From positions 9,896 through 73,895 of IMG/VR virus record IMGVR_UViG_3300048833_000100: a stretch of 64,000 nucleotides of DNA; one strand, given 5' to 3'. Within the stretch, counting starts at the first letter, position 1; the number at the start of each line of letters is the position of its first letter. A model generated the notes under the pieces. That model was not told the DNA's origin and ran no database searches. It was given only the letters and a program-made list of their open reading frames with translations. Source of the DNA: a virus. The translations under genes were made by a program, and so were the position numbers. Positions 48,651-64,000 of the stretch are shown in pieces.

Positions 48651-50005
48651 ACCCAGACTCCTTGCACTGTATGCTGTCTCCAGCTTCCTTCAACCTGCCG
48701 CATGGCCCAAAACCCTTCTACGCTGTGTTCTGCCCAGAACCCAGTCACTTCGATTTGCTTGGATGTATCCCGCTGATCCGTGGCAATGCCGGAGATCGAG
48801 ATCGTCCCTTCGACAGTCCCGATCACCCGGATCCTGCCCAGGGCCTCCCCGGTAATTCCGATGGTTCCAGAGATTTCTCCAGACACCTCGGCCGCGGTCC
48901 CTGCACCGAAAGCCTCACCTGTGAGCCCGATCGAACCATTGACCGTTCCCAGGACCCGGACAGAGCCAAGCCCCGAGCCAGAGATCCCGATAGTTCCTGA
49001 TACTGTCCCAACATCCCGGACAGATCCTAGACCCGAACCAGTGATCCCAATGGTTCCAGATACCGTCCCGACATCACGCACAGAGCCTGTGGCAGAGCCA
49101 GTCAGGCCGATACTGCCAGACACCGAGCCAATGTCTCGCACGGTCCCCGCAGCAGAGCCGCTCAGACCAATTGTGCCGGCCACCGAACCAGACACCTTCG
49201 CAGACCCCGTGGCAGCCCCGGAGAGGCTGATGGTCCCTGTGACCGTCCCGATGCTCCGCACTGACCCGGAAGCCGCTCCCGTGAGCCCTATGGTTCCGGC
49301 CACGCTGCCTGTGCTGCGAACAGTCCCCGCCGCAGAGCCGGTGAGGGAGATGGTTCCCGAAACCGTGCCCTCGACCCCGGAGCTCTCTCCAGGCTCCATG
49401 TGGTAGCTGTCCGGGGTCACCCCACCAATCGCCGGATTGGCATTGAGATCCCGCATCCCCTCACTGCCATTGAAGAGATCGGCAAACATCGTTGCCGGAT
49501 CCATGGCAGTGTCATTCGACCACCAGTAACCTTGGGTCTCCCCAGGGATCACATAGGTGCCGGTGCGGTCCCCCATGAAATAGGCTTTGGCAAGGCTGAC
49601 ATCTGAGACAGCATCATCAGATGTCATCACCAGCACACCGTTGTGCCAAAGCTCTCCGTAGATCCCGCCGCCAAGTCCAGCAGCATTGAACCTTAGGACG
49701 AAGTTGTTGGTCCCGCCTGGGAAAGCCAGGTGGGCTGTGGGTCCGACAAAATCAAAGACTACCGGAGCCCAACCGGATGAGTAAAAACTGGCCGCGATGC
49801 TGCGACCAGACTCATCGTTGTGACCGTTGATGAAGACACTGGAGAACATATCCGTGTCGATCATCTTGGCCGTCGAGGGAGCATCCAGCTGCCCCGCTGC
49901 ATAGCGATAGGACCATGCAAAAGTGCAGGCCGCAAAACCCCAAGGCGGCCCATCCGGCACAGCCAGGATGGGCGCTACGGGAGAGAACCAAGACGCTGCA
50001 GGCAT
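48647..50005 (-). CDS. Repeat-containing fibre/decoration protein
   Basis: N-terminal beta/lectin-like domain, ten ~20-aa GTVSGTIGLTGSAxGSVRxx repeats, four V(E/T/Q)GxW repeats. Confidence 0.75.
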   Translation of the reverse strand: MPAASWFSPVAPILAVPDGPPWGFAACTFAWSYRYAAGQLDAPSTAKMIDTDMFSSVFINGHNDESGRSIAASFYSSGWAPVVFDFVGPTAHLAFPGGTNNFVLRFNAAGLGGGIYGELWHNGVLVMTSDDAVSDVSLAKAYFMGDRTGTYVIPGETQGYWWSNDTAMDPATMFADLFNGSEGMRDLNANPAIGGVTPDSYHMEPGESSGVEGTVSGTISLTGSAAGTVRSTGSVAGTIGLTGAASGSVRSIGTVTGTISLSGAATGSAKVSGSVAGTIGLSGSAAGTVRDIGSVSGSIGLTGSATGSVRDVGTVSGTIGITGSGLGSVRDVGTVSGTIGISGSGLGSVRVLGTVNGSIGLTGEAFGAGTAAEVSGEISGTIGITGEALGRIRVIGTVEGTISISGIATDQRDTSKQIEVTGFWAEHSVEGFWAMRQVEGSWRQHTVQGVWV

Positions 50006-50052
50006 GTGCTACCCCTGAGGTGATATGGGCCGGATCATCCGGCCCATTGGCT

Positions 50053-50460
50053 TCAGGCGTTGCCTGCGTTCAGGTTGAACGCCGTGATGTCCAGCACCAC
50101 ACCTGCAGCCAGAGCCACAGCACCAAGCTGCATGTCACCACCGGCACCCGTGAGACTCACCGTGCCCTGGCAGTGACAGGTCGTGCCCGTGCTGTCATAG
50201 ATCCTGAAGTGAGCGGCCGTGCCAGCAGCATCCGCTGCGGGATCCGTCCAGAGACCGGCCAGGGCCTTGGCACCGTTCGCTGCAGCTGCCATCCAGTCAG
50301 CGGGCAGGGCCAGCGTTGCCAGCACCGTCCCGGTATCAGCTGCGGCGCAGTTGGCGGGCACAGCACCCGTGCGGATCCGCATGATCGGGCTTGCCCCGAT
50401 TTCCGTCTCGGTGGCGTTCAGCCAGGCGTTACGCACCGGCACGGAGAATTGAAGAGCCAT
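50053..50460 (-). CDS. Putative virion fibre-base/decoration protein
   Basis: RNAWLNA...IRTGAVPANCAAADTGTVLATL...AAGTAAHFRIYDS; a pattern I recall from small phage structural proteins. Confidence 0.7.
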   Translation of the reverse strand: MALQFSVPVRNAWLNATETEIGASPIMRIRTGAVPANCAAADTGTVLATLALPADWMAAAANGAKALAGLWTDPAADAAGTAAHFRIYDSTGTTCHCQGTVSLTGAGGDMQLGAVALAAGVVLDITAFNLNAGNA

Positions 50461-50625
50461 TGGTCACCCCTTGAAGATGGAGGAGGTCGTCGACCTCCCA
50501 GTCAAATTATATCACTTTACACCAAACCACACCAAACCGAAATCCGTGGATCCCCCTGAACCATCTGGACAGGGGATCTGGTCCGTGGGTAAATCACACC
50601 ACACCAAACCGTCAGGACTTGAGCC

Positions 50626-50853
50626 ATGAAGGACACTGTCTCTGAAGCCCCGGTCACCCCGAGCCGGGGACACAACTCCCCCTACGATCGCGGCCGGGCC
50701 GACAGCTACTACAGCCGTCCTCCTGAACCCAACAAGCGCACAGGCCATCTGGGCGTCAATCGGATCACCGATCTGACCCCGGAGGAAACCCAGGAATACT
50801 ACGCCGGGTATGACTGGAATGAGCAATACGGCGAGAAAAAAGACTGGAGATAA
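50626..50853 (+). CDS. Hypothetical protein
   Basis: HNSPYDRGRADSYYSRP...YYAGYDWNEQYGEKKDW. Confidence 0.75.
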   Translation: MKDTVSEAPVTPSRGHNSPYDRGRADSYYSRPPEPNKRTGHLGVNRITDLTPEETQEYYAGYDWNEQYGEKKDWR

Positions 50854-50857
50854 CACC

Positions 50858-51211
50858 GTGAGAACCTATGCCGACCGTCAGAAAGACGTGGGGCAGGGCC
50901 GCTATGCCCTGTCTTCCGATACCCGTGACTTTGATCCGACCACTCTCGAGGGAGCCAAGGCGATCCTCTCTGTGGCCGGCGCCAAGAAGGCCGCCAAGTT
51001 CGCCCTGAATGACCTCTGGAAGCAGGCACAGGAGCCGGGGCAGGGCTACCTACCCACCGCCCGGATCAACGCTCCCTTGCGTGTCCTGCAGGCCCTGGAG
51101 ACCCTTGGCATGATCGAGAAAGCGCAGGATGATCGGGGCAGGGCTTTCCGATACCGGCTCTCCCCGACTGGCTTGCGCCAAGCCAAGAAGAAGGCGGGCC
51201 TCGTCGCATGA
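50858..51211 (+). CDS. Putative winged-helix DNA-binding protein
   Basis: LQALETLGMIEK...RYRLSPTG. Confidence 0.6.
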   Translation: MRTYADRQKDVGQGRYALSSDTRDFDPTTLEGAKAILSVAGAKKAAKFALNDLWKQAQEPGQGYLPTARINAPLRVLQALETLGMIEKAQDDRGRAFRYRLSPTGLRQAKKKAGLVA

Positions 51212-51777
51212 CAAGGAACCCCGTCAAATACAGGGACATCACCATTCGCGGTGTGACCTACCCCGACGCCTCCGCTGCCGCTGCGGCGATCGGGGTAACC
51301 CGATCCACCATCGGCCGAGCCATCCGCTTGGGCAAACTGGACACAGTCGGACTGGGGGTCGGATCCAACAATATCTGTCCTGTCGTCATCCGTGGGGTCT
51401 ACTACCCGACCCAGATGGCGGCAGCTGAAGCCCTCGGCGTCCGGGCGGATGTCGTCTGTAAGGCCCTGAACAGGGGAACCATCGACAACGTGGGCCTCGG
51501 CTCAGGGAACTGGCTCCGGGAAGTGGATGCTCCCCGAAACCCGATCACCCTGCTCGGGGTCACCTTCCCCTCCATGGCTGCTGCATCCCGGCTCCTGGGC
51601 TTCACGGACAAGCATGTCCATCGGGTTCTCAAATCCGGTGGCAAGAAGGCCAAAGCCCGCCTTATGGAGGCCGTCTGTGCCTACCGGGATGCCCAACATA
51701 TCGCCCGGATGGACGCTATGCGCGCCAGAGAAGGGCGGGCACAGGTCACCCACCACCGGATGTCCGAAGCCGCCTGA
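51208..51777 (+). CDS. NUMOD1-like tandem HTH-repeat protein
   Basis: Three repeats of ITIRGVTYP..xAAAxAxG. Confidence 0.7.
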   Translation: MTRNPVKYRDITIRGVTYPDASAAAAAIGVTRSTIGRAIRLGKLDTVGLGVGSNNICPVVIRGVYYPTQMAAAEALGVRADVVCKALNRGTIDNVGLGSGNWLREVDAPRNPITLLGVTFPSMAAASRLLGFTDKHVHRVLKSGGKKAKARLMEAVCAYRDAQHIARMDAMRAREGRAQVTHHRMSEAA

Positions 51778-51868
51778 ACCACCCCACCCGCGCATCCCAA
51801 CAGCACCACGATCGCCCTTGCGGTCGTGGTTTTTTGGGTTTGTGCCCTGATCAGATTTGGAGACTTCC

Positions 51869-52918
51869 ATGACCATGTTTACCATGACCCCGAAAGAGGT
51901 CAGGGCCGCCATCCTCGAGTGCTTCGAGGCCCGACTGGTGCCCTTCATCCAGTCGAGCCCCGGCATCGGCAAGAGCGCCATTGTGGCCTCGATCGCCAAG
52001 GAGTTCGATCTCGAGCTCATCGACCTTCGCCTGAGCCAGTGCGCCCCGGAAGACCTCATGGGTCTGCCCATGCGCTTGGGCGAGGGCACCGAGATGAAGG
52101 CTGCCTTTGCCCCCTTTGCCATGTTCCCCGTCGTCGGGGACAAGCTACCCAAGGGCAAGAACGGCTGGCTGCTCTTCCTCGACGAGTTCAACTCGGGAAC
52201 CAAGATGGTTCAGGCAGCTGCCTACAAGCTGGTGCTCGATCGCATGGTTGGCCAGTTCCGGCTGCATGACGATGTCTATGTCGTGGCGGCTGGTAACCTG
52301 GCCTCTGACCGCGCCATCGTGAACAGCCTCTCGACCGCCATGCAATCCCGCCTGGTTCACATCGAGATGGAGCTGCATCACGGTGAGTTCATGGACTTCG
52401 CCACGGCCGCACAATGGGATCCTCGCATCCTGGCCTTCTTGGAGTTCCAGCCGGGCAAGTTGCACAACTTCAAGCCCGACCACACCGATCGGACCTTTGC
52501 CTGCCCGCGGACCTGGGACTTCGTCAACCGGCTCATCAACGGCAAGCCCAAGATGAACAAGCCGCTGCTGGCGGGTGTCATTGGAGAAGGTGTAGCTGTC
52601 GAGTTCTGCACCTATGCTGAGATCTTCGCACAGCTGCCGAGCTACACCGTCATCTGCTCGGACCCCGACAACACTCCGATTCCGCGGGATCCGGGACCGC
52701 TCTATGCGACCATCACCATGATGGGCGACAAGTTCTCGCGGGCGACCTTCAAGGACGCAGCCAAATATGCAGACCGTCTGCCGCCCGAGTTCCAGGTGCT
52801 CTACCTGAAATCGGTAAAACGGCGGGAGCCCTCCTTCGTCCGGGACCAGGAGTTCGTCCGGCGCAGCAAGCGTCTGGTGACCTTCATGGCTGAAGATGAC
52901 ATGGCGATGGTCGCATGA
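51869..52918 (+). CDS. MoxR-like AAA ATPase (N4 gp24-like)
   Basis: SSPGIGKS, LLFLDEFN and FACPRTW motifs. Confidence 0.92.
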   Translation: MTMFTMTPKEVRAAILECFEARLVPFIQSSPGIGKSAIVASIAKEFDLELIDLRLSQCAPEDLMGLPMRLGEGTEMKAAFAPFAMFPVVGDKLPKGKNGWLLFLDEFNSGTKMVQAAAYKLVLDRMVGQFRLHDDVYVVAAGNLASDRAIVNSLSTAMQSRLVHIEMELHHGEFMDFATAAQWDPRILAFLEFQPGKLHNFKPDHTDRTFACPRTWDFVNRLINGKPKMNKPLLAGVIGEGVAVEFCTYAEIFAQLPSYTVICSDPDNTPIPRDPGPLYATITMMGDKFSRATFKDAAKYADRLPPEFQVLYLKSVKRREPSFVRDQEFVRRSKRLVTFMAEDDMAMVA

Positions 52919-53112
52919 CGAGCACACCCCAACCCACCACAGACCGGGTGAAGTTCGTCTGCCCGGTCTGCAAGTCTGACCGGATCCTACGGGATGCCTA
53001 TGCGTCGTGGAACCAGGACACCCAGGAATGGGAGCTCCACGATGTCTACGACTACACCACCTGCCAGGACTGTGATGCTGGCAGCAATCATCGGGACGAG
53101 ATCCCGATCTGA
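52915..53112 (+). CDS. Small Zn-ribbon protein
   Basis: CPVC...DAYASWN...CQDC. Confidence 0.7.
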   Translation: MTSTPQPTTDRVKFVCPVCKSDRILRDAYASWNQDTQEWELHDVYDYTTCQDCDAGSNHRDEIPI

Positions 53113-53394
53113 ACGAGATCCTTCCCCGATCAGGGGGAGGGGAGTCGGAAGGACCTCAACAGGGCTTCATACCTTCCGGCTCCACAGGTCCCGTCCCAGG
53201 GTGCTGACTTACCTGGGATGGGCTTGGTCGGCGGCATGCCCCCATGCCGTCGGCGTGGCTGTGTCAGCAGCTGCCAGGAGATGACCGCCTATCAAGCGGT
53301 GGCGTATGACAGGGAATGAAGGGATTAGCCCCACTGGCTCCAAGAGCTATCGCCCAGCCGAACATCAGGATGTGTCCTGAGCATCTCCTACCCC
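53113..53394 (+). ncRNA. Putative structured non-coding RNA
   Basis: Six or more contiguous hairpins with G-U pairs on the + strand; no convincing ORF. Confidence 0.4.
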
Positions 53395-53488
53395 GAGGGT
53401 GTGGCGGAATTGGTAGACGCGGCGCTTATAGGGGCTCCAGAACCCGAACGTGCCGGAATTGTGGGTTCGACTCCCACCACCCTCACCT
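53395..53488 (+). tRNA. tRNA-like element (Leu-type D/T arms, non-canonical anticodon arm)
   Basis: Acceptor GAGGGTG/CACCCTC; D arm GCG-GAATTGGTAGA-CGC; T arm GTGGG-TTCGACT-CCCAC; ends A-CCT; anticodon not assignable. Confidence 0.65.
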
Positions 53489-53541
53489 ACCACGCAGTTC
53501 CCGGTCTGCGTCATCAAAACCGGGACCCCATTCCCTGAACC

Positions 53542-54714
53542 ATGGAGCTCCCCATGCGAGACCTGTCTCAGGTCGTCGTGCCCGATCAGGCCACGCTCGA
53601 CACCCTGCTGTCCAAAGCCAAGCTCCAGTTCTTCGCAGCCAAGCGCAAGGGCGTCGGCTTCCTTGGCTCCCTGCTGTGTGATCACACATATATCTGGGAC
53701 GACTCCCCGAATTGTCCCACCGCCTGGTGCGATGGCAAGACCATCTGCTTCAACCCGCGGTTCTTTGTGAGCCTGGCTCAGGAGCAGCGTGTGACCCTCC
53801 TGGTCCATGAGCTCTGGCACACCGGCTATGACCACATGGACCGGATCGGCAACCGAGATCCCGAGACCTGGAACGAGGCTGCCGACTACGTCATCAACAA
53901 CCTGATGGACACCTGGGGCTACAACTTCACAGGCATGGACCCCCTGCTCGACCATCAATATGACAACATGACCACTGAACAGGTCTATGAGATCCTGATC
54001 AAGCAGCCCCGCAATCCCAACCGGGCGACAGACCCAAGTCCCCTTGGGAATGATGTCCGCCCATCCCCGTCCCGCGCTGACCAACAAGCCATCAAGGAGA
54101 AGATCGTCAAAGCTGCCCAGGCCTCGAAGATGGCCAAGGAAGCCGGGATCATCCCTGGCGAGACCAAGCAGCTGATCGAGGAGTTTCTCAACCCGATCCT
54201 GCCGTGGGAGATCCTGCTGGAGCGGTTCTACACCGAGCTCTCGAAGGACGACTACAGCTGGAAACGTCCCTCCCGGCGCTACGAGGATGAATACCTCCCG
54301 AGCCTCGATGGCGACAACAAGCTGGATCACCTGATCTACTACATCGACGTGTCGGGCTCGATCACCAATGCCCAGATGCTGCGGTTCCTCTCCGAGGTGA
54401 AACACATCCACACGAACCACACACCGAAGAAGATCACGGTGGTTGGTTTCGATACTCAGGTCCAGTTCGTCCACGAGTTCGAGGAGGGCGATCCCTTCGA
54501 GAAGATCGAGATCAAAGGACGGGGCGGCACCAATCTGAAGCCGGTCTACACCCATATCCGCAAGCACATGCCCACCGCGGCAGTCGTGTTCTCGGATCTG
54601 GAATGTCGGCCGATGTCGAAAGACCCCGGTGCCCCGATCCTCTGGGTCATCATGGACAATCCCTCGCCGGATGGACTGGCTCCCTTCGGCCAGCGCATCC
54701 ACATCAAGGCCTGA
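53542..54714 (+). CDS. Metallopeptidase plus VWA domain protein (N4 gp25-like)
   Basis: TAWCDG, HELWH, WNEAADYVIN, IDVSGSI and GRGGTN motifs. Confidence 0.92.
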   Translation: MELPMRDLSQVVVPDQATLDTLLSKAKLQFFAAKRKGVGFLGSLLCDHTYIWDDSPNCPTAWCDGKTICFNPRFFVSLAQEQRVTLLVHELWHTGYDHMDRIGNRDPETWNEAADYVINNLMDTWGYNFTGMDPLLDHQYDNMTTEQVYEILIKQPRNPNRATDPSPLGNDVRPSPSRADQQAIKEKIVKAAQASKMAKEAGIIPGETKQLIEEFLNPILPWEILLERFYTELSKDDYSWKRPSRRYEDEYLPSLDGDNKLDHLIYYIDVSGSITNAQMLRFLSEVKHIHTNHTPKKITVVGFDTQVQFVHEFEEGDPFEKIEIKGRGGTNLKPVYTHIRKHMPTAAVVFSDLECRPMSKDPGAPILWVIMDNPSPDGLAPFGQRIHIKA

Positions 54715-54717
54715 ACC

Positions 54718-54864
54718 ATGAGCTGCCTTGCAGACACAGGTTGGGAGCTCTTCCTCGAAGGGCTCCAGACCGCCAATCCCAAGAAGATGCAACTGGGCAT
54801 GCGAACCATGGCCCGACAGATCAAGGAGCAGCCTCGTGCAGTTCAAGAACCGCAAGGAGTATGA
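54718..54864 (+). CDS. Small hypothetical protein (48 aa)
   Basis: Read manually after TGAACC-ATG. Confidence 0.35.
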   Translation: MSCLADTGWELFLEGLQTANPKKMQLGMRTMARQIKEQPRAVQEPQGV

Positions 54865-55354
54865 GCCCACGCACATCAAGACCCTGGTCGAGATGTTGGA
54901 TGGGGACAAGGAAAAGGCCGCTTCCCTGATGGGCTGCCACTATGCCACCGTCGTCACCGCCATTCGGGAAGATGTGGCTACCCGTCGTCAGGAAATATCG
55001 GCACACAAGGCCATCATCCGCCTTGAGACCGAAGAGTCGATCAGGCGGCGGCAAGAGGCTGAGGCTGCCCAAGCCAAGCTCAACGAACTGCTACTACCAC
55101 CGCTGCCACAGCCACCCGTCCTGCCGCTGCTGGAGCCTCAGCAATCTGGGCACTATGACAGAAACCCGCCACTTCGTCGGCCGATCTTCATGAGGCCGGT
55201 CGAGGAAGCCCAGGTCGTTGAGGATGTCCCGGAACTGGGGCCGAGCCTTCCCCCAGACCACATGGTTCAGGTCCTGGTCTCGATCCCGGCCAACAAACTC
55301 CAGTCCTTCCACCGGGTCACAGCCCTCATGGGCGCCGAGGTGGCAGAACTCTGA
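54837..55354 (+). CDS. Putative HTH DNA-binding protein
   Basis: SD aaggag with GTG; DKEKAASLMGCHYATVVTAI HTH-like segment. Confidence 0.6.
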
Positions 55355-55429
55355 ATCCCTGACGATCCCTGTCAGGCTCCCGCAGTCGGAGGGTAACCCG
55401 GCATCAACCCCTTGCATGAAAGGAAGCAC

Positions 55430-55768
55430 ATGCTTCGCAAGACCCTGATGCTGGCCCTGTTGGGACCGGCCCTTCTCGTCATGGCTGCCTGCGCCCCTGG
55501 CCCCAATGCCGTGGCTCCCATCCCGATGCCAGTCAACACCTACATGGACATGAACTGTGTCCAGGCGAAGGCCGAGCACACCCGTGTGACCAATGAGGTC
55601 GCGGCCTTGTCCAAGAAGCAGAAGAACGCTGCCGTGGGCGATGCCATCGGCGTCTTCCTGATTGCGGTGCCCGTGTCCTCCCTGACCGGCAATGACGTGC
55701 AGGGAGATCTGGCTGTGTCCAAGGGCAAGCTGCTCGCAGCTGAAGCCCGCCTGAACTCCTGCCGCTGA
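55430..55768 (+). CDS. Lipoprotein
   Basis: Signal peptide with lipobox MAAC; YMDMNC...DAIGVFLIAVPVSSL...SKGK. Confidence 0.75.
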   Translation: MLRKTLMLALLGPALLVMAACAPGPNAVAPIPMPVNTYMDMNCVQAKAEHTRVTNEVAALSKKQKNAAVGDAIGVFLIAVPVSSLTGNDVQGDLAVSKGKLLAAEARLNSCR

Positions 55769-55834
55769 TCCAACCCTCAGCCGCCCCCGCTTGGCCTGCC
55801 GGCCTGCGGGGGCTTTCTGTCTCGGGATAGTCAG

Positions 55835-56014
55835 ATGAAGATCACCGAAGAATATTTCACCACAGCCGTCGGCCGAGAGCCTGTGATCGACGATCTGGCC
55901 CGCTGCAACTGCCCCAAGGCAGGAGAGCTTGGCCATTTCCAATGCGGCTGGAACCACCAGAAAAACCTGCCGGTCTTCATGGCTGGCCCGGAAAAGAAAG
56001 AACCCACCACATGA
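55835..56014 (+). CDS. Small Cys-rich phage protein (59 aa)
   Basis: Read manually: AVGREPVIDDLARCNCPKAGELGHFQCGW; ATGA overlap with dcd. Confidence 0.6.
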   Translation: MKITEEYFTTAVGREPVIDDLARCNCPKAGELGHFQCGWNHQKNLPVFMAGPEKKEPTT

Positions 56015-56595
56015 TCGTCAATGGCGCATCCCTGCTTGCAGCAGCCCCGATCAAGGACATGCTCACCACCAAGGAGCGGGCTCATGGTGTGAGCTACGGT
56101 CTGGCCGAGGCGGGCTATGACATCCGCATCAAGCAGGACATCACGTTCATTCCAGCGGGACATTACCAATACATCCCGGAGCAGGATCCAAACGTCCCCT
56201 ACGTCAGAATGACCCGGAAGCTGATAGGGTGGGATACCGTCTTCTCCTATGACCCCAGCCTTGGTCCTGTGCCCACTGAAGGGACTTCTGGCCGCTTCAC
56301 CATCGCTTCCGCAATCGAAGAGTTCCAGATGCCCCATGATCTCGTGGGCGTCGTTCACGACAAGAGCACCTGGGCACGGCGCGGTCTCTCGGTCTTCAAC
56401 ACCGTGATCGAGCCGGGCTGGAAGGGCTTCTTGACCCTTGAGCTGATCTACCACGGCAACGAGCCTCTGCATATCAAGGCGGGCTCCGGCATCGCACAGA
56501 TCCTGTTCTCACGCGTCGAGAACCCCGCCGCCTATGATGGCAAATACCAGAACCAGGCCGATCGGCCGGTGGCTGCCATCTACGAGAAGGGGTGA
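56011..56595 (+). CDS. dcd: dCTP deaminase (N4 gp26-like)
   Basis: SYGLAEAGYDIR, DKSTWARRG, NTVIEPGWKGFLTLE and YDGKYQNQ motifs. Confidence 0.93.
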   Translation: MIVNGASLLAAAPIKDMLTTKERAHGVSYGLAEAGYDIRIKQDITFIPAGHYQYIPEQDPNVPYVRMTRKLIGWDTVFSYDPSLGPVPTEGTSGRFTIASAIEEFQMPHDLVGVVHDKSTWARRGLSVFNTVIEPGWKGFLTLELIYHGNEPLHIKAGSGIAQILFSRVENPAAYDGKYQNQADRPVAAIYEKG

Positions 56596-56668
56596 GCCAA
56601 AGCCCAGCGGGCGGTGGCTCAAAACACCCGCAGCAGGGGGGATTTGTAGTCTGGATCCTGACCCTGCC

Positions 56669-57202
56669 TCACTCCCCGTCTTCATAGACCGCTGGCAAGT
56701 CGGGCAACATGCCCGGCAGGCTCGGTTGCGAGACGGGGGGTAACCCATCCCCAGAGGGCAGCTGTTGCTCGCCCTGAAGCATCTTCGGCACCTGCCGGAG
56801 CTTCTGCTCGACTTCGGGCAATGGCCTGGGCTGATCCGATCCTGCCAGTAGGATCGTGCCTCTGACCGTGGCATAGCGTAGACCGTCCCGGTTCTTGCGC
56901 CAGGCCACATGGCTGTTGATCGCATAGACATTGACCGTGCCGGAGCTGCCCACCTGCAGCACCTGAACCCAGTTGCCTTCCCGCAGAGTCTCCATGGCTC
57001 GGCGGATCGAGATCTTGCTCACTCCCATCAGCTCGGCCAGGGCATTGTGGGAAGCTGCAACATAATTATCCTTATCAGCCAGAACCACGAGCTGGTGCAT
57101 GAGGGCCGCTGCCATGGGCTTCTCCAGGGTCAGCTGCTTCCATGCCTCATGGGTAGACAGATCGGTCTGAACGAAACCCTGCAAGGGCGCCGGTGTCTTC
57201 AT
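56669..57202 (-). CDS. rep: Plasmid replication initiator, pBBR1 Rep/RepL family
   Basis: FVQT..STHEAW..L..EKP.AAALMHQLV, winged helix, GTVNVYAINSHVAW...RD.LR and GEQQLPSG...SQP.LPGM.PDLPA co-linear with pBBR1 Rep as recalled. Confidence 0.88.
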   Translation of the reverse strand: MKTPAPLQGFVQTDLSTHEAWKQLTLEKPMAAALMHQLVVLADKDNYVAASHNALAELMGVSKISIRRAMETLREGNWVQVLQVGSSGTVNVYAINSHVAWRKNRDGLRYATVRGTILLAGSDQPRPLPEVEQKLRQVPKMLQGEQQLPSGDGLPPVSQPSLPGMLPDLPAVYEDGE

Positions 57203-57560
57203 AGGTTCTCCAGATGAGCAGGGGTGTGTTCATCTCAGCCACGAATCGTATCTGGCAGCATGTCTTCCCGTATCTGACTGGTCAATCCACGACTCAGACC
57301 GTGCTCATCTGAATGAGCAGGGGGGTGCTCATCTAGGTGAGCAGACCCCCCTGCCCAAGCCCTTGATTCACAAGGCTCGAAATCTTGCCCTCTCTTATGA
57401 TCTACAGGACAGGGGACGGGTCGTGTCGTGTCGGGCGAAGCGGCTCCCCACAAAGCAAGCGCCGACCGATGCGATGCGGCCCAGCCCCTGCCTGTCTTGC
57501 GAAAACTTATCCACAGATCACAGCTCTGCCTCTGTTCTCCTTTCCAGGAGTCAAGGGAAA
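57203..57560. promoter_or_regulatory. Putative plasmid origin of replication (Rep-binding inverted repeats plus DnaA box)
   Basis: AGATGAGCA-N6-TGTTCATCT (57212-35), TGCTCAT-ctga-ATGAGCA (57302-19), TGCTCAT-ctag-GTGAGCA (57326-43), TTATCCACA (57507-15). Confidence 0.75.
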
Positions 57561-57613
57561 AGCCATAATGAAAGGAGGAGCATGGCATCCACTATCCGAA
57601 CCATAGAGGCACT

Positions 57614-57886
57614 ATGAGACCCTTTGAGAACAGCCGCTTGCTCCCAGAAGATGATCCAGACGAGATCTACTCCGCCCATGCTTCAGACAACTATCCCCGC
57701 ATCTCGCAGATCACTGTCGAGGTCTTGTTGGTGGGAATGTCCGAGCACATGCTTCGGATCAAGGCGGATGAAGATAGCCCTGCCCGGTGGGTCCACCGGC
57801 AGGGCATCAAGATCCTCTCCATGTCAGACCCGACAGCCACCCTCTCCATGACCGAAGCCAAGGCTATCGACTTGGGTCTGGTCTGA
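57614..57886 (+). CDS. Hypothetical protein
   Basis: SD gagg; WVHRQGI...LSMTEAKAIDLGLV. Confidence 0.65.
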   Translation: MRPFENSRLLPEDDPDEIYSAHASDNYPRISQITVEVLLVGMSEHMLRIKADEDSPARWVHRQGIKILSMSDPTATLSMTEAKAIDLGLV

Positions 57887-57890
57887 TGTT

Positions 57891-57910
57891 ACACCACACC
57901 AAACCACACC
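57891..57910 (+). repeat. (ACACC)x4 site downstream of par operon
   Basis: acacc acacc aaacc acacc. Confidence 0.75.
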
Positions 57911-57988
57911 GAATGTTCAGGCGGTGAGGTTGGAATGGGGTGGCCCGGAAGTTCTCGCGTTCCTTCGGGCCGGGCCACCCCAGGCGGG

Positions 57989-58336
57989 CTACTTGCGCGG
58001 GTGCTGCTCCCGCTCTCGCAGGTAGCTCGCCATCATCGCCTCGAGCATCTCGCCGTTGGTCAGCCGGGTGGCAATGCACAGCCTGCGGAAGCTCTCGTAG
58101 ACAGGTTCCTTCATGCGAAGAGACATCTGCACTGTCGGTTCCTTCTCCCGCCGTTCCCGACGGCTCCAGCTCTCCTGCTCCAGCTTCTCTTCTGCCTTGG
58201 CCGAGACCTTCTCCAGGACCTCGGGCGGCAGGAGATCGAGGCCGGGCTTCACGGGCTCGGAAACCATCCGCCGTGCCTTCTCTGCCTCAGCTGCCACGGC
58301 CGAGACAACATCCACAAACTCCATCTTATGCGCCAT
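57989..58336 (-). CDS. Partition adaptor, ribbon-helix-helix ParB/ParG-like
   Basis: Flexible N-terminus, C-terminal TVQMSLRM-KEPVYESFRRLC-TNGEMLEAMM RHH; overlaps parA stop. Confidence 0.75.
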   Translation of the reverse strand: MAHKMEFVDVVSAVAAEAEKARRMVSEPVKPGLDLLPPEVLEKVSAKAEEKLEQESWSRRERREKEPTVQMSLRMKEPVYESFRRLCIATRLTNGEMLEAMMASYLREREQHPRK

Positions 58337-59039
58337 GGTTCACCTCCTTCGCGCCCGGACGACTCCAACCCCGGATGTCGTCAATCCACCCCATCACACC
58401 CTTCAGCTCCTCGACGAAGAGCTCGGCATTGCCAATTGCCTTGGGAACCCCGGAGACCTCGTTCACGTCGAGATCGTAGAGGGAGCCGCCGTAGGCGCTC
58501 AGTGCCGCAAAGGCAGTCCGTTCAGAGAGCTCGGTGGTGAAAGCCCCGATCTTGTCGCGGATCTGGGTGTTCACCGACCGTTGCAGTCTCGACTTCACCG
58601 CGGCCTTGGTCCGGGTGAAGAGGATGCGGACGGGGATCTCCCGGTTCCGCTGCATGGCTTCCCGCTTCAATTGAACCAGGGTGTCCACGGCCTGCTTGGC
58701 TTCCTCGTGCTCGTCCCCCATGGGGATGATGACGAGATCGCTCTCCGACATGGCGATAGCCGTCAGGCTCCGCCCTGCCCCTTGGGTGTCGATAATCACA
58801 TAGTCCGAGGCAGCCTTGGCCCGGTCCAGCTCGCCGATGAAGCTCCGCTCACCCTTGGAGGCGATGACCTTCAGACGTGCATGGACCGGCGCCCGCTCGG
58901 ACCAGCTCACGAGGCTCTGGTTCGGGTCGGTGTCGATCATCGTCACCCGATGATGGCGCATCAGGATGGTGCCAAGGATGATCGCAGACGTGGTCTTTCC
59001 TACGCCGCCTTTCGACGACGCGAAGCAGATGACAGGCAT
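58326..59039 (-). CDS. parA: Type Ib ParA partition ATPase
   Basis: SSKGGVGKTT deviant Walker A, IDTDPNQSL, VIIDTQG and SDLVIIP; no N-terminal HTH. Confidence 0.92.
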   Translation of the reverse strand: MPVICFASSKGGVGKTTSAIILGTILMRHHRVTMIDTDPNQSLVSWSERAPVHARLKVIASKGERSFIGELDRAKAASDYVIIDTQGAGRSLTAIAMSESDLVIIPMGDEHEEAKQAVDTLVQLKREAMQRNREIPVRILFTRTKAAVKSRLQRSVNTQIRDKIGAFTTELSERTAFAALSAYGGSLYDLDVNEVSGVPKAIGNAELFVEELKGVMGWIDDIRGWSRPGAKEVNHGA

Positions 59040-59105
59040 CGGCAGTTCTCCAGTTTTCCCAAGACTGAGGCTGCTCCCGAATCTGGGACCTGTCCAGAGA
59101 AAAAT

Positions 59106-59158
59106 ACACCACACCGAACCAAATCACCATTTTTTCGCCCAAAACCCCACACCACACC
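59106..59158 (+). repeat. Two ACACC arrays in the divergent parA/helicase promoter region
   Basis: acacc acacc gaacc aaatc, then acccc acacc acacc. Confidence 0.75.
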
Positions 59159-59220
59159 ACCAGATGTTGGGTTTTTTGGTGGTTTCCGCCCCTGAAAATG
59201 AACTCCAACAGGATCCCTAC

Positions 59221-60606
59221 ATGAATACCGTGACACTGACCCAGGGGCAGAAAGACGCCGCAGACGCCTTCCTCGAGTTCCTCCTGACCGATGCGAAGAC
59301 CTTCGCCATCTCCGGCTCGGCCGGCACAGGCAAGACCTTCCTCATGACCTATCTCTCTGACCGGGTCATGAAGCTCTACGAGCAGGCCTGCAACCTCGTG
59401 GATGTCAAACCTGACCTGACCCAATGCGTCTTCACCGCCACGACCAACAAGGCGGCCGAGGTTCTTGAGCAGGGTCTGAAACGACAGGTCACCACAATCC
59501 ACAGCCTCCTCGGGCTGAAGGTCACCGAGAACTATCGCACCGGCAAGACCGAGATCCAGAAGACCCAGAACTGGCGGACCCGGTCTGGACATATCGTCTT
59601 CATCGACGAGTGCTCGATGATCGACAAGGTCCTCTATGCCATCATCATGGAGAGCTTCCCCAACTCGAAGATCGTCTTCGTCGGGGATGCGGCCCAGATG
59701 GCTCCGGTGGGCGAAAGCCAGTCGGTCCTCTATGACCACCTGGATCCGAACCACCACGTCACCCTGACCGAGCCTGTCCGCAATGCCGGGCAGCCTGCCC
59801 TGGTGGCGCTCTGCAGCCAGCTCCGTGAGACCGTCGAGACCGGCATCTTCAAGCCGATCAAGGAGGTTCCCGGAGCCATCGAATACCTGGATGCCGATGA
59901 CATGCAGGCCGGGCTTCGCCACTACTTCACCGATCTCGATCCCGCTTGTCGGGTGCTCTGCTACACCAACGAGCAGGTGCAATCCTACAACGAGTTCATC
60001 CGGGAAGAGGTGCGTCACCTGCCGGTCGAACCAACGGTCGGGGACATCATGGTGGTGGCTCAGGCCTTCTCCCGCGGCAACATGACGCTCTCGGTCGAAC
60101 GGGAGCTGCAGGTCTACGCTGTTGGTGAGGTCGAGGAGAACACCAAGTTCCAGGATTGGGGTGTCACCATCCCCTTCCGCAACCTGCGGGTTGGGGCTCC
60201 CGGCATGACCAATGTCAACCCGGACCTCCTCATGGAGATCCCGGTGGCGGTCTACCCTGAGCAGGTCACTCGTCTGGTCAAGGCCACCGCCAAGCAGAAG
60301 GACTGGTCCACCTACTTCGAGGCCAAGGGCGCCTTCGCAGACCTTCGGGATAAGTCAGCCTGCACGGTCTACAAGGCCCAGGGCTCGACCTATGACGCAG
60401 TCTTCGTCGACCTCACCAACATCGGCGCTTCCTACGATCCCGAGCAGGTGGCCCGGATGCTCTTCGTGGCCTGCTCGCGGGCACGGAGCAACGTCTATCT
60501 CTATGGCCAGCTCCCCGGCCGTTACAACGACTCGAGAGGCAAACCCCTATGGACACCCAAGGATTCATCCGAGAAGTCTTCGAAGCCATCTTTGGCAGCG
60601 AAATAG
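59221..60606 (+). CDS. SF1B Dda/RecD-like DNA helicase (N4 gp37-like)
   Basis: GSAGTGKT, TATTNKAA, IDECSM, GDAAQ and TVYKAQGSTYD motifs. Confidence 0.93.
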   Translation: MNTVTLTQGQKDAADAFLEFLLTDAKTFAISGSAGTGKTFLMTYLSDRVMKLYEQACNLVDVKPDLTQCVFTATTNKAAEVLEQGLKRQVTTIHSLLGLKVTENYRTGKTEIQKTQNWRTRSGHIVFIDECSMIDKVLYAIIMESFPNSKIVFVGDAAQMAPVGESQSVLYDHLDPNHHVTLTEPVRNAGQPALVALCSQLRETVETGIFKPIKEVPGAIEYLDADDMQAGLRHYFTDLDPACRVLCYTNEQVQSYNEFIREEVRHLPVEPTVGDIMVVAQAFSRGNMTLSVERELQVYAVGEVEENTKFQDWGVTIPFRNLRVGAPGMTNVNPDLLMEIPVAVYPEQVTRLVKATAKQKDWSTYFEAKGAFADLRDKSACTVYKAQGSTYDAVFVDLTNIGASYDPEQVARMLFVACSRARSNVYLYGQLPGRYNDSRGKPLWTPKDSSEKSSKPSLAAK

Positions 60607-61037
60607 AGCGTCTCAAGACCACGCTCAACGAGCTGATCACCCAGAATGGTCTGCGGGGCAACCCGTCCTATGGCTTCCTCTATGGGGGGGCCTTCCATAC
60701 CAACATGGATCCCAAGACCCTGGCCAAGTTCCCCAAGAAGATCCTGCACCCGGACCTCCGGGAGCAGGGCCAGATCTATGTCCAGGAAAAGGCGATCCTC
60801 GATCGTGGACTGGCAGAGGTGAGGCATGCGCTCACCGCCCTCCTGAAGCCCTGCAAGGACCTGCAGGACATTCGGGATCTGCTGACCAACACGGTCGTCT
60901 TCTTCCTGCCCAGTCTCCAGGGGATCCCCCGGACCCGAGATCCGGGCTGGGCTTTCGCAGGCAACACCATCGAGATGCACAACTTCCAGCACACCGTCGG
61001 GGTGCTGGAGGCCCATCTCGCCAACCGGCTCATCTGA
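60549..61037 (+). CDS. N4 gp38-like hypothetical protein
   Basis: GFLYGG and CKDLQDIRDLL motifs; lies between helicase and polymerase. Confidence 0.75.
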   Translation: MDTQGFIREVFEAIFGSEIERLKTTLNELITQNGLRGNPSYGFLYGGAFHTNMDPKTLAKFPKKILHPDLREQGQIYVQEKAILDRGLAEVRHALTALLKPCKDLQDIRDLLTNTVVFFLPSLQGIPRTRDPGWAFAGNTIEMHNFQHTVGVLEAHLANRLI

Positions 61038-61044
61038 GGCAGAC

Positions 61045-63090
61045 ATGAAATACCAGACCTTTTCCGACATGGCGACCGACCGCTTCGAGGTGGCCATCCT
61101 TGTCCCGAAGCTCTCGGCAAAGGACATGCGTCGGGAATACATCGAGGCTCAGACCCTCGATCCGACTGAGGTCATTGCCTATGAGCTGCTGCAGCAAGGC
61201 AAGAAGACCCCTGCCACCGTGCAGCGGGAATACCTCGACGAGCTGGTTCCCGTGCTTGGCGACCTTGGGGTGAAATACCTCATGGTCGGGGAGACCGAGT
61301 ATTTCAAGACCCTCTGCGGGGTCCGCAAGGCCGAAGCCTATCTAGGCTATGCGATCCCCAATGAGTGGCCGGAAAACATGGCAGGCCAGTTCATGGTCTT
61401 CTATGTGCCCAACTATCGGCAGGTGTTTCACAACCCGGCCCCCACCCGAGCCAAGATCACCCAGGCCTTTGATGCGCTCTGGAACCATCGGCAAGGGCAT
61501 TACCGAGATCCTGGCTGTGACATCATCTCCTTCGCAGCCTACCCCTCCACACCCACCGACATCGCGGCTTGGCTCGACAAGCTGATCAAGATGGATGTGG
61601 ACCTCACGGCCGACATCGAGACCTTCTCCCTGAAGCATCACTCGGCCGGCATCGGAACCATCGCCTTCGCCTGGAACAAGCACGAGGGCATCGCTTTCCC
61701 AGTGGACCTCTCGGAAAATCCAGAGGCTGTCCGGCGCTTGCTCGGCCGGTTCTTCCGGGAGTTCAAGCACAAGCTGATCTGGCACAACATCAGCTTCGAC
61801 GCCTATGTCCTGATCTACCAGCTCTTCATGGAACACATCTGCGATACCGCGGGTCTCCTCGATGGGCTGGAGGTCATGCTGAAGAACTGGGATGACACCA
61901 AGCTCATCACCTACCTGGCGACCAACTCCTGTGCTGGCAACGACCTTGGCCTCAAGGCTCAGTCCCAGGAGTTCTCCGGCAATTACGCGGTCGAGGAGAT
62001 CAAGGACATTCGGGCGATCCCGCTTCCTGAGCTGCTTCTCTACAACCTGGTCGATGCGCTCTCCACATGGTTCGTCCGGGAGAAGCACTGGGACACCATG
62101 GTGGCCGACAATCAGCTCGAGATCTACGAGACCCTGTTCAAGCCCGCCATCTGGGACATCATCCAGATGCAGCTGACAGGCCTTCCGATTGACCTCGAGC
62201 GGGTCAAGGAGGTGAAGGCAATCCTGGAGGTCGATCACGTCGCAGCCCTGCATCGCATCCAGAGCCACAAGCTCACCAAGACCCTCACCCACATGCTCAA
62301 CGATGAGGCTGAGGCGGCACGCTATGAGGACTGGCTCGACCGTAAGGCCTCCGGCATCAAGGTCCGACCCTATACCCCCAGCAAGGGAGATCTGGAGTTC
62401 AACCCGAACTCTCCGCAGCAGATGCAGCGCCTGCTCTATGAGCTGGCTGGCCTTCCCATCATTGAGAAGACAGCCACAGGTCAGGCTGCCACGGGCAAGG
62501 AGGTTCTCGAGAAGCTCCGGGCAGAGACCGAGGACCCCAAGCTCCTCGACCTCATTGACGCCTTCCTGGCCTATGCTGCCGTGGACAAGATCCTCACTGC
62601 CTTCATCCCAGCCATGGAAGGAGCGGTGCTTGGACCGGACGGCTGCCATTACCTCTTCGGGAACTTCAACCTGGGCGGCACGGTCTCCGGCCGACTGTCT
62701 AGCTCCAACCCGAACCTGCAGACGATCCCGGCAAACAGCAAGTATGCCAAGATCATCAAGTCCTGCTTTAAGGCTCCCAAGGGCTGGCTCCTTGTCGGAC
62801 TCGACTTCGCCTCCCTGGAAGACCGGATCTCGGCTCTGACCACCAAGGACCCCAACAAGCTGAAGGTCTATACCGACGGCTTCGACGGGCACAGCCTCAG
62901 GGCTCAGAGCTACTTCTCCGAGCAGATGCCTGACATCGAGCTGGCCCCGGAAGGTGCCCGCTGCTTTGAAGCCAAGATCGGGGACCGAACCATATGGTTC
63001 CACGAGCAGGAACAGGTCTCCTACCTCGGTCAGGACATGACCGGGCTGGAGCTGTGGGAGCGCCTCATGAACGTCAGGGTCGCGGCATAG
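61045..63090 (+). CDS. DNA polymerase family A, N-terminal part (exonuclease plus motif A)
   Basis: ADIETFSL, HNISFD, YNLVD, GTVSGRLSSSNPNLQ and GLDFASLEDRI; motifs B and C absent. Confidence 0.93.
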   Translation: MKYQTFSDMATDRFEVAILVPKLSAKDMRREYIEAQTLDPTEVIAYELLQQGKKTPATVQREYLDELVPVLGDLGVKYLMVGETEYFKTLCGVRKAEAYLGYAIPNEWPENMAGQFMVFYVPNYRQVFHNPAPTRAKITQAFDALWNHRQGHYRDPGCDIISFAAYPSTPTDIAAWLDKLIKMDVDLTADIETFSLKHHSAGIGTIAFAWNKHEGIAFPVDLSENPEAVRRLLGRFFREFKHKLIWHNISFDAYVLIYQLFMEHICDTAGLLDGLEVMLKNWDDTKLITYLATNSCAGNDLGLKAQSQEFSGNYAVEEIKDIRAIPLPELLLYNLVDALSTWFVREKHWDTMVADNQLEIYETLFKPAIWDIIQMQLTGLPIDLERVKEVKAILEVDHVAALHRIQSHKLTKTLTHMLNDEAEAARYEDWLDRKASGIKVRPYTPSKGDLEFNPNSPQQMQRLLYELAGLPIIEKTATGQAATGKEVLEKLRAETEDPKLLDLIDAFLAYAAVDKILTAFIPAMEGAVLGPDGCHYLFGNFNLGGTVSGRLSSSNPNLQTIPANSKYAKIIKSCFKAPKGWLLVGLDFASLEDRISALTTKDPNKLKVYTDGFDGHSLRAQSYFSEQMPDIELAPEGARCFEAKIGDRTIWFHEQEQVSYLGQDMTGLELWERLMNVRVAA

Positions 63091-63139
63091 CCGCGCCCCT
63101 TGAGATCCCCATCAGGTCACTAAATCAAAGGAGGGCGTT

Positions 63140-63364
63140 ATGCTCACATTCGATGTTTCCGTCTCCGGTGGACAGGTTGGCCGCCAATTGGCAGCTGATC
63201 CTGAAGAGCTCCGGTATGCCCTAGAAGCCATCATGGAAGAGGTTCCTGTTGTTGAGCTGGGAGAGGATCTAATCCGGCATCTCCACAGCTTCGGTCAGGC
63301 CCAGGAGCTCGCAGACTTCCTGCGGGCGCTGGCCGACCGGATCACGGCGGAATGGGACAAATGA
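63140..63364 (+). CDS. Hypothetical protein
   Basis: SD aggagg. Confidence 0.7.
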   Translation: MLTFDVSVSGGQVGRQLAADPEELRYALEAIMEEVPVVELGEDLIRHLHSFGQAQELADFLRALADRITAEWDK

Positions 63365-63651
63365 AGCTCTACACCGCCCACCTGCAGGCCCTCCAGGGCT
63401 TCTACGCCTCCAACGTCTATGTGCTGGCCCCGGACATCTTGCAAGCCGTTCAACGGGCATTGCAGGGGATCAAGAGCCACGTCGCCGAGCAGATACACGA
63501 CTACGGGGGCTTCTTCGTCCTGAACTGTTCGCAGCCGGATGAACCAGGCCATGCCGAAGAACTCGCCGACTTCTACCGTAGGGTGGAGATCGAGTTGCGG
63601 CGGAAACTCTACGAGATCCCCGAAGGGGTCATCGTCAAAGTGAGGAGCTGA
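63361..63651 (+). CDS. Hypothetical protein
   Basis: ATGA overlap with the upstream gene. Confidence 0.6.
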   Translation: MKLYTAHLQALQGFYASNVYVLAPDILQAVQRALQGIKSHVAEQIHDYGGFFVLNCSQPDEPGHAEELADFYRRVEIELRRKLYEIPEGVIVKVRS

Positions 63652-63654
63652 ATC

Positions 63655-63840
63655 ATGAAATCCCCAACCATCACTGAGATGCGGAAGGCTCTTGCTGACG
63701 ACATCTACGACAGCCTGACCAATGACCGCACCTATCGGTCCTGTGTGGCCGACCGCATCGTCAAGGATATGGATGATACTCAGGTCATCCAGGCCTACGA
63801 AGATGCCGAGTTGGGCAGCTCGGTAGATGATGAAGTCTGA
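63655..63840 (+). CDS. Hypothetical protein
   Basis: SD gaggag. Confidence 0.6.
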   Translation: MKSPTITEMRKALADDIYDSLTNDRTYRSCVADRIVKDMDDTQVIQAYEDAELGSSVDDEV

Positions 63841-64000
63841 ACCATGTTCCTACTCATTGCCTGGCTCCTCATCATGGTTTTCCACGCCATCAATTGGTAT
63901 TGCGGAGCGCCTGCCCGGTGGTCATCGGTCTTCTGGTTGTCAGTCGCTCTTCTGTCTGAACTCCTCGCCGATTACAGCGAGCTTCCAATATGATCACTCT

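Follow-up and report, generated by a model that had tools for sequence, protein, structure and literature searches.

A Plasmid-Type Replicon and Partition Operon in an N4-Like Phage: A Candidate Phage-Plasmid of the Schitoviridae

Replication and Partition Genes Between dcd and the Helicase

The stretch of DNA analyzed here (64,000 nucleotides, hereafter the window) comprises bases 9896-73895 of a single 73,895-bp virus record, IMG/VR record IMGVR_UViG_3300048833_000100, which has no terminal repeat. In a 2.6-kb interval between the dCTP deaminase gene dcd and a gene for a Dda-type helicase, the window carries a module of plasmid-type genes, encoding a replication initiator (Rep), a partition ATPase (ParA) and a probable ribbon-helix-helix (RHH) partner protein, all on the minus strand, together with an origin-like region. 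The initial annotation had read an intact Rep, an origin-like region and a parA-RHH operon here, on the strand opposite the flanking genes, and all three were found in that arrangement. The features of the module and its flanks, in window coordinates, are as follows (ORF, open reading frame; GC3, GC content at third codon positions):

55942-56595, plus strand: dcd, dCTP deaminase, left flank (phrog_1663 at 6.9e-55; Pfam DCD at 1.9e-17)
56669-57202, minus strand: Rep, RepL-type (HTH_36-like) plasmid replication initiator, 177 aa (tblastn to plasmid rep genes)
57214-57235: copy of the Rep-site repeat, probable autoregulatory operator (91% match to 57313-57334)
57302-57343: two palindromes TGCTCA-N6-TGAGCA (57302-57319 and 57326-57343), probable Rep binding sites
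57346-57404, minus strand: conserved RepL-type origin core, with TAGATCATAAGAGAGG, spacer and G6 tract
57507-57515, plus strand: DnaA box TTATCCACA, perfect
57614-57886, plus strand: 90-aa ORF between the origin and the par operon (GC3 0.74, coding-like)
57890-57913, minus strand: (GGTGT)n array 3' of the RHH gene, candidate centromere or operator
57936-57982: perfect 13-bp inverted repeat directly after the RHH stop, a terminator-like hairpin lacking a T run (not called by the terminator scan)
57989-58336, minus strand: RHH protein, 115 aa, probable centromere-binding partner of ParA (start overlaps the parA stop)
58326-59039, minus strand: ParA, small Walker-type partition ATPase, 237 aa
59105-59160, minus strand: (GGTGT)n arrays 66-120 nt 5' of the parA start, in the divergent region towards the helicase
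~59221-60606, plus strand: Dda-like helicase, right flank (phrog_325 at 8.9e-109; 44% identity to Schitoviridae helicases)

The 90-aa ORF has no match in Pfam, PHROG or NCBIfam. The GC content and GC3 of the module match those of the phage. Logan contigs were placed on window positions 50000-64000, and in the probable source run (X1), from sediment, they bridge both the dcd/rep and the parA/helicase edges with zero differences. In two runs from other studies, one from fish gut at ~98% identity (X2) and one at ~97% (X4), contigs cross from the par operon into the helicase, and a relative at ~90% identity (X20) also has dcd, rep, the origin and parA. X20 carries an organism label but was not taken for an isolate, since its three million contigs resemble those of a community. 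A 2,027-nt contig, apparently from X2, encodes a Rep 99% identical as a protein, and the X2 DNA over the region is ~97.7% identical. A chimeric assembly at the module edges, which the initial annotation had proposed to look for, is thus contradicted by contigs of three other runs, at ~98, 97 and 90% identity, that bridge these edges.

Both X1 and X2 also contain contigs of much higher depth (~90-105x, against ~10x for the phage) that match only parts of the RHH-ParA region (57939-59339) and then diverge, for instance with the same loose end at 58008 in the two runs. These contigs indicate that a related par operon resides on another, more abundant replicon in the same samples.

An N4-Like Phage Genome

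The 73,895-bp genome is 100% complete by CheckV and encodes a virion RNA polymerase (vRNAP) of 3709 aa (phrog_2206 at 1887 bits) and both subunits (RNAP1 and RNAP2) of the N4-type RNA polymerase II (RNAP II). Portal, major head protein, TerL, ATPase, VWA protein, DNA polymerase, primase, a Sak4-like protein and a single-stranded DNA-binding protein (SSB) are also encoded, with further N4-type PHROG matches to phrog_2166, phrog_2051, phrog_1216, phrog_1357 and phrog_2135. With the giant vRNAP, two-subunit RNAP II and N4-type portal, capsid and replication genes expected of the Schitoviridae, the 73.9-kb genome is, on gene content, securely a bona fide N4-like phage. One molecule carries these complete virion and replication genes along with plasmid replication and partition genes, the combination by which a phage-plasmid is recognized. 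Among deposited phages, the best helicase matches reach 44% identity at most, and all are from Schitoviridae, so that the phage has no cultured close relative; its host is probably an alphaproteobacterium.

While the initial annotation described all core virion and lytic genes as intact, and the N4 core set is indeed present, the DNA polymerase is split into two ORFs, at window 61045-63090 and at genome positions 1008-1808 (L013). In a comparison with the OLIVR1 polymerase, window 61045-62940 corresponds to its residues 1-634 and genome 1008-1808 to its residues 617-866, with ~2 kb of small ORFs between the halves in a stretch that crosses the contig ends. A contig of X4 runs from the window end (63997) into genome base 1 with ~11 extra letters between, indicating that the record is a closed or circularly permuted assembly. 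The lack of an integrase, first noted for the window, extends to the whole 73,895-bp genome, in which no tyrosine or serine recombinase was found. In the compared N4-like phages OLIVR1 and RHph_X3_15, the interval between dcd and the helicase is occupied by rIIA and rIIB, homologues of which were found nowhere in this genome.

Rep and Its Origin Resemble Those of Small Alphaproteobacterial Plasmids

By tblastn, 241 plasmid records have a rep gene with a product 45-51% identical to Rep across 92-98% of the phage protein, and the best matches are mostly small (5-10 kb) plasmids of Paracoccus, Sphingobium, roseobacters, Bartonella and Komagataeibacter. To RepL of pLA6_12 (7,053 bp), it is 48.3% identical over 95% of the query (E=8e-46), and this RepL alone is sufficient for plasmid replication (PMC6789725). 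The matches also include Sphingobium and Paracoccus plasmids of the kind placed in the HTH_36 Rep group (pAES7, pMARC3 and pMOS2), the REP modules of which were cloned for host-range tests by Maj et al. (PMC3832669). The motifs HEAW, GTVNVYAINSHVAW and GEQQLPSGDGLPPVSQPSLPGMLPDLPA, quoted in the initial annotation, are present in Rep and conserved across the plasmid family (alignment A1), which has 47 invariant columns including the C-terminal tail GEQQLPSGDGLPP..P.LPGM.PDLPA; the C-terminal motif common to the whole Rep family is GEQQLPSGDGLPPVSQPSLPGMEPDLPA.

Domain profiles score below threshold, with the Pfam HTH_36 profile at 21 bits (cutoff 25) and Pfam RepL (PF05732) at 11.3 bits (cutoff 20.3, E=0.25), and some Rep homologues in a large protein database carry PF05732. 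In the AlphaFold2 model of Rep, which has a modest mean pLDDT (per-residue model confidence) of 64, residues 15-95 form a winged helix and the tail beyond them is disordered, and a PDB sequence search and a Foldseek search with this model returned only generic winged-helix regulators. Collectively, the comparisons support the placement of Rep among alphaproteobacterial RepL-type (HTH_36) plasmid replicases; the original assignment to the RepL family survives in this sense, although the Pfam RepL score itself does not reach its cutoff. As for the pBBR1 link, no pBBR1 record is among the listed plasmid matches of Rep, in collections that do not include X66730.

No match to Rep was found in 50,697 phage records, and a Rep scan of IMG/VR and JGI metagenome contigs also returned nothing. 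The large protein database contains relatives at 91% (P0002), 65% (P0003 and P0004) and 49% identity (P0023, on a 75.8-kb contig). The Rep tail (window 56669-56760, residues ~145-177) holds a proline-rich motif that is nearly invariant across the plasmid family and resembles a peptide by which a host replication protein could be docked.

Similarly, the DNA upstream of rep resembles the origins of these plasmids. The palindrome TGCTCA-N6-TGAGCA occurs there in two perfect copies 24 bp apart, the only two in the 64-kb window (0.21 expected). In an alignment of the upstream DNA of the phage and six plasmids of five genera (alignment A4), an invariant TAGAT.AT.AGA (in fuller form TAGATCATxAGAxxG, common to the phage and the six plasmids) is followed by a spacer, an invariant G6 tract (seven of seven sequences) and then a palindrome that differs from replicon to replicon (TGCTCAcctagaTGAGCA in the phage, GGTCACAGCTGTGACC in pLA6_12). 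The partial repeat at the start of rep in the phage (57214-57235) has an analogue in pLA6_12, and such a repeat is described for the pAES7 group by Maj et al. (PMC3832669). The conservation of the origin blocks, the palindrome and the site at the rep start indicates that the phage has kept the complete cis-acting origin of the family, beyond a related gene. The inverted repeats and DnaA box of the initial annotation were thus both recovered; the box TTATCCACA, 313 nt upstream of the rep start, is perfect and unique in the 64-kb window, but is weak on its own because 17 of 100 shuffles also contain at least one copy.

The RepL-type small plasmids compared here (pLA6_12, with Marinibacterium, Roseovarius and Celeribacter; pAES7, pMARC3 and pMOS2; pYAN-1) therefore resemble the phage in Rep (45-51% identity), in its proline-rich C-terminal motif and in origin layout, with the TAGATCATxAGA box, G tract, Rep-specific palindrome and partial site at the rep start. 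They differ in being 5-10 kb long and mostly mobilizable, whereas the phage replicon sits in a 74-kb virion-forming genome, adjoins a par operon of different ancestry, has a less AT-rich origin spacer and includes a consensus DnaA box upstream of rep. The plasmid pLA6_12 has no parAB (PMC6789725).

The ParA-RHH Operon and the GGTGT Arrays

The true start of parA is the ATG at 59039, giving a protein of 237 aa rather than the 262 aa of the ORF, and the parA stop overlaps the start of the RHH gene by 11 nt; ParA and RHH are translationally coupled and intact. ParA has a KGGVGKTT Walker A motif and no N-terminal DNA-binding domain, as is expected of a small ParA, and matches Pfam VirC1 (66.7 bits), AAA_31 (58 bits) and CbiA (48 bits), all in excess of their cutoffs. 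It also matches phrog_164 (8.6e-28) and NF041546 ParA_partition (1.6e-29), the latter at 103 bits, below the cutoff of 180.

The parA-RHH operon proposed at the outset is thus confirmed for ParA, and the RHH assignment is probable. In the RHH gene product, the C-terminal 40 residues are conserved in related phages (the clade described below), and the sequence suggests a beta-strand, helix, helix pattern. A profile of the clade's RHH proteins matches McdB (6noy), a ParA partner, at E=0.0013 and Arc weakly (0.69); the protein itself matches the Arc-like phrog_582 weakly (0.042), and Pfam RHH_10 reaches 0.024 at best, in a relative. From these matches, the 115-aa protein is probably an RHH-type centromere-binding partner of ParA.

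Arrays of (GGTGT)n occur at ~20 intergenic sites genome-wide, with two regions flanking the par operon (57890-57913 and 59105-59160) and ~17 further sites. The start positions are:

In window coordinates: 12714, 20113, 23179, 27158, 32534, 34888, 37931, 42272, 44103, 50523, 50595, 57890, 59105, 59148
In genome coordinates: 374, 4346, 8420

The 13-mer version of the motif is present 12 times in the window (0.19 expected). Most arrays, in one orientation or the other, follow a terminator hairpin and precede the next ribosome-binding site. Every clade locus examined has the motif, at 1-4 copies per 10 kb and in most cases with one ~85 nt upstream of parA; two other N4-like loci and the related plasmids lack it. 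The arrays may act as a distributed centromere, as operators bound by the RHH protein or as promoter elements specific to the clade.

The Cassette Is Conserved in an Uncultured N4-Like Clade That Exchanges Its Replicon

Relatives in IMG/VR were found first through the helicase and then by an alignment-based ParA scan; a scan of IMG/VR with the single ParA sequence returned nothing. The ParA-RHH pair is syntenic in more than 12 uncultured N4-like IMG/VR contigs, in the order VWA, dcd, (thyX), Rep, small ORF, RHH-ParA on the opposite strand, helicase, o162 and polymerase. Across this clade, ParA is 52-62% identical to that of the window, the RHH C-terminus is ~52-67% identical over the aligned 38-51 residues, and the helicases are mutually only 45-58% identical, which places the window's phage as one of several deep branches and implies that the cassette has been kept through deep divergence. 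One 66.6-kb member has the vRNAP, three near-complete relatives have no integrase, and one near-complete relative is assigned direct terminal repeats. The large protein database contains ParA homologues at 54-60% identity on at least 12 contigs of 69.6-75.3 kb, the size of an N4 genome. The window's ParA is nearer to this phage clade (53-62%) than to any plasmid (at most 50%), and no deposited phage exceeds 36% identity to it.

Most of the relatives whose contigs include that part of the locus have as initiator a 288-aa Rep_3 protein, encoded on the plus strand (Rep3_N 35.7 bits and Rep3_C 61 bits, both in excess of the cutoff). The clade Rep_3 proteins are 57-68% identical to that of one member (L012), have no match in deposited phages and are 59-66% identical to the initiators of 16-45 kb plasmids from cultured Rhodobacterales and other Alphaproteobacteria. 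Direct repeats of 21-22 bp (iterons), four or five in number, follow Rep_3 in three of the four relatives examined. In Thioclava sp. GXIMD4216, a pure culture, the only recognizable replication module of the 45-kb plasmid p5 consists of parA and an RHH gene that overlaps it, together with five iterons, a DnaA box and rep_3; p5 and the clade have the iteron core GTGAGGT(A/T)TCTGGGG in common. On these comparisons, the clade cassette is homologous, as a unit, to a plasmid replicon.

The 30-45 kb Rhodobacterales plasmids with this parA-RHH-iteron-Rep_3 arrangement (among them Thioclava p5 and those of Pukyongiella, Paracoccus sanguinis and Acuticoccus) have a ParA 46-50% identical to that of the window's phage, the same gene order and overlap, and the RHH motif RW.SRE...S(L/I)(R/K)...FR..C..RRT.G(E/D)MLE in common with it, whereas this phage has lost Rep_3 and the iterons. 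Upstream of parA, the phage clade has (GGTGT)n where Thioclava p5 has repeats of the GCATGGCATG type. The Rep_3-bearing phages (such as L012/L028, L017 and L025) match the window's phage in synteny, ParA (52-62%), (GGTGT)n and the lack of an integrase, and differ from it in having iterons in place of palindromes, Rep on the other strand and a GC content of ~47% (L012, the one relative profiled) against 60%.

Taken together, synteny and sequence identities indicate that the ancestor of a deep N4-like clade already had the par operon, that the operon has been inherited vertically, and that the lineage of the window's phage has kept par and swapped Rep_3 and its iterons for the RepL-type replicon of small alphaproteobacterial plasmids. 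The cassette had at first been taken for a one-off acquisition, a view that must be abandoned, since in this lineage only Rep and the origin were exchanged. Retention of par through an exchange of the initiator is the outcome that selection for plasmid function predicts.

Two further IMG/VR contigs combine related genes without an N4-type helicase and carry other phage-like genes by PHROG matches: a 45.8-kb contig (L027) with ParA at 48% and Rep_3 at 61% identity, and an 83.4-kb contig (L033) with ParA at 36% and a RepL-like Rep at 33%. These may be further types of phage-plasmid.

Comparison With Known Phage-Plasmids

P1, N15, SSU5 and the extrachromosomal mycobacteriophages with parABS, such as RedRock, combine virion genes with plasmid replication and partition and have no integrase, as in the genome studied here; they also have known repressors and are demonstrated plasmid prophages. 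To our knowledge, none of them is N4-like or has a virion RNA polymerase, and the window's ParA is only 27-30% identical to the ParA of RedRock-type phages.

Nearer to hand is pRBH2-3 (PLSDB NZ_CP110465.1, L125), a closed circular 75,126-bp N4-like genome from the cultured clinical Acinetobacter baumannii RBH2, in which the vRNAP scores 2603 bits. Within its positions 4215-10997, parA, a small gene of RHH-like type, a winged-helix gene (HTH_36) and the gene of a serine resolvase run against the direction of most of their neighbors. It resembles the window's phage in the vRNAP, in a portal 47% identical and in having parA, RHH-like and HTH_36 genes, and differs in its ParA (only 28% identical), its serine resolvase, its gammaproteobacterial host and its deposition as a plasmid of the isolate. 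We found no paper on pRBH2-3. Of the genomes compared, it appears nearest to direct evidence for a plasmid state of an N4-like phage, from an unrelated lineage.

A Plasmid Lifestyle and Its Alternatives

The evidence tilts, if only slightly, towards the cassette being a functional, phage-owned plasmid maintenance module that allows extrachromosomal persistence. In its favor are the homology of Rep and the origin to validated replicons, the intact ParA-RHH pair, conservation in the clade and the exchange of replicons at one locus. The RepL-type initiator would bind the palindromes of the adjacent origin, and Rep together with host DnaA at the DnaA box would recruit the host replisome for theta replication of the phage genome, the circularization of which is assumed. 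ParA and its RHH partner would segregate the copies, with the flanking (GGTGT)n arrays as centromere. The cassette is oriented opposite to the middle genes and has its own upstream regions, so that it could be transcribed by the host RNA polymerase at a time when the lytic cascade, which depends on the vRNAP, is silent. From these features we infer host-driven replication and lytic silencing, and the outcome would be persistence outside the chromosome as a phage-plasmid or in a stable carrier state. The initial annotation had proposed an episome with a temperate lifestyle; the intact replicon and partition cassette and the lack of an integrase on which it drew are borne out, and we likewise infer a temperate plasmid lifestyle of these phages, but neither a repressor nor a clade carrier was found to go with it.

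Several observations weigh against persistence as a plasmid. Pfam searches of 20 early ORFs found no repressor, antirepressor or lysis-lysogeny switch, although small or novel repressors would escape such searches. No clade member was found in PLSDB by portal search; none was found among the matches listed for GTDB species representatives in a helicase-alignment search, a weak test in which those matches follow a generic P-loop pattern and are at best 29% identical; and 401 sampled alphaproteobacterial genomes gave no vRNAP match. The clade consists entirely of sequences from metagenomes or viromes. Genomes of the N4 type are linear molecules with terminal repeats, and direct terminal repeats are assigned to one relative. 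The scan of the module called no sigma-70-like promoter before rep or parA and no canonical terminator, and is uninformative in this respect. Finally, a centromere role of the (GGTGT)n arrays is uncertain because they occur at ~20 intergenic sites and are not specific to par.

The carrier and repressor searches are also what one would expect if the cassette served lytic growth only, with Rep and its origin starting phage DNA synthesis with host proteins, ParA-RHH positioning genomes or replication foci during a long latent period, and no heritable carriage. The cassette lies amid the replication block (dcd, helicase, polymerase, primase), in place of rIIA/rIIB, and its conservation over deep divergence fits an essential lytic role equally well. 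We nevertheless regard this as possible rather than likely. The phages themselves encode a polymerase, a helicase, a primase and an SSB. The same is true of the cultured Schitoviridae in the collection (more than 400), and searches with Rep, the clade Rep_3 and ParA found no match in any N4-like record among the latter. Moreover, the genes are transcribed against the direction of the middle genes, and ordinary low-copy plasmids have a replicon to which the whole cassette is homologous. The known role of partition ATPases with RHH partners is segregation when cells divide.

A bolder form of the plasmid reading, which we consider doubtful, is that these phages form a deep clade of true phage-plasmids lacking a classical repressor, silenced by the transcription logic of N4, with the RHH protein as a global repressor and with replicons swapped to match new hosts. 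Early genes would need the injected vRNAP, and a genome that misses or outlives that pulse would be transcriptionally quiet and kept by the host-transcribed Rep-ori-ParA-RHH cassette; RHH would repress at the ~20 (GGTGT)n arrays, like omega of pSM19035.

Rep and RHH might also act only as regulators that repress or time genes through the (GGTGT)n arrays, or the cassette might be a weapon that exerts incompatibility on host plasmids of the same Rep/Par type. The generic winged-helix scores of Rep in Pfam and Foldseek would suit a regulator, RHH proteins are classical repressors, and the arrays are clade-specific, stand just upstream of many genes in both orientations and precede parA at most loci; in the source sample and X2, a related par region occurs on another replicon at ~ten-fold higher depth. 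We judge either role improbable, given that the complete family origin, with its non-coding invariant blocks and DnaA box, is retained beside rep, where a pure regulator has no need of it, and that the relatives keep iteron arrays beside Rep_3. In addition, we know of no regulatory use of a ParA ATPase on its own. That a small plasmid recently recombined into the phage as a passenger without phage function, or was joined to it in assembly, as the opposite strand of the module and a Rep with small plasmids as nearest database relatives and no homologue in deposited phages might suggest, is very improbable and already largely refuted by contigs from three other studies that bridge an edge or cover flanks and module at 90-98% identity, by phage-like GC and GC3, by a vertically inherited par operon and by coupled, intact genes with a Rep protein conserved at 99%, apparently in X2, where the DNA over the region is ~97.7% identical.

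Textbooks present N4-like phages as strictly lytic, and phage therapy and ecological models treat them accordingly. Integrase-bearing N4-like genomes have been reported (PMC10654107), and we found no report of a plasmid replicon in the family in the searchable literature. What is new here is the conservation and synteny of ParA-RHH across an N4-like clade and the exchange of Rep at its locus. If the plasmid reading is true, a conserved and exchangeable Rep-ori and ParA-RHH cassette would add a new type of virus to the phage-plasmids and would suggest a route to persistence that is independent of a repressor. The swap of replicons at a fixed locus shows phages to trade origins with the small plasmids resident in their hosts.

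Additional Features of the Genomes

In L012, the region at 5188-7155 is longer than its counterparts in relatives, and the homologous ORF of L033 scores as thymidylate synthase (phrog_85). The large insert in L012 has weak, sub-threshold matches to intein-splicing and HNH endonuclease domains, and the region may be a thyX-like gene interrupted by an intein. In the window itself, ARAGORN calls a tRNA-like gene with a four-base anticodon (atag) at 53395-53487, in the gap between a 65-aa ORF and the VWA gene.

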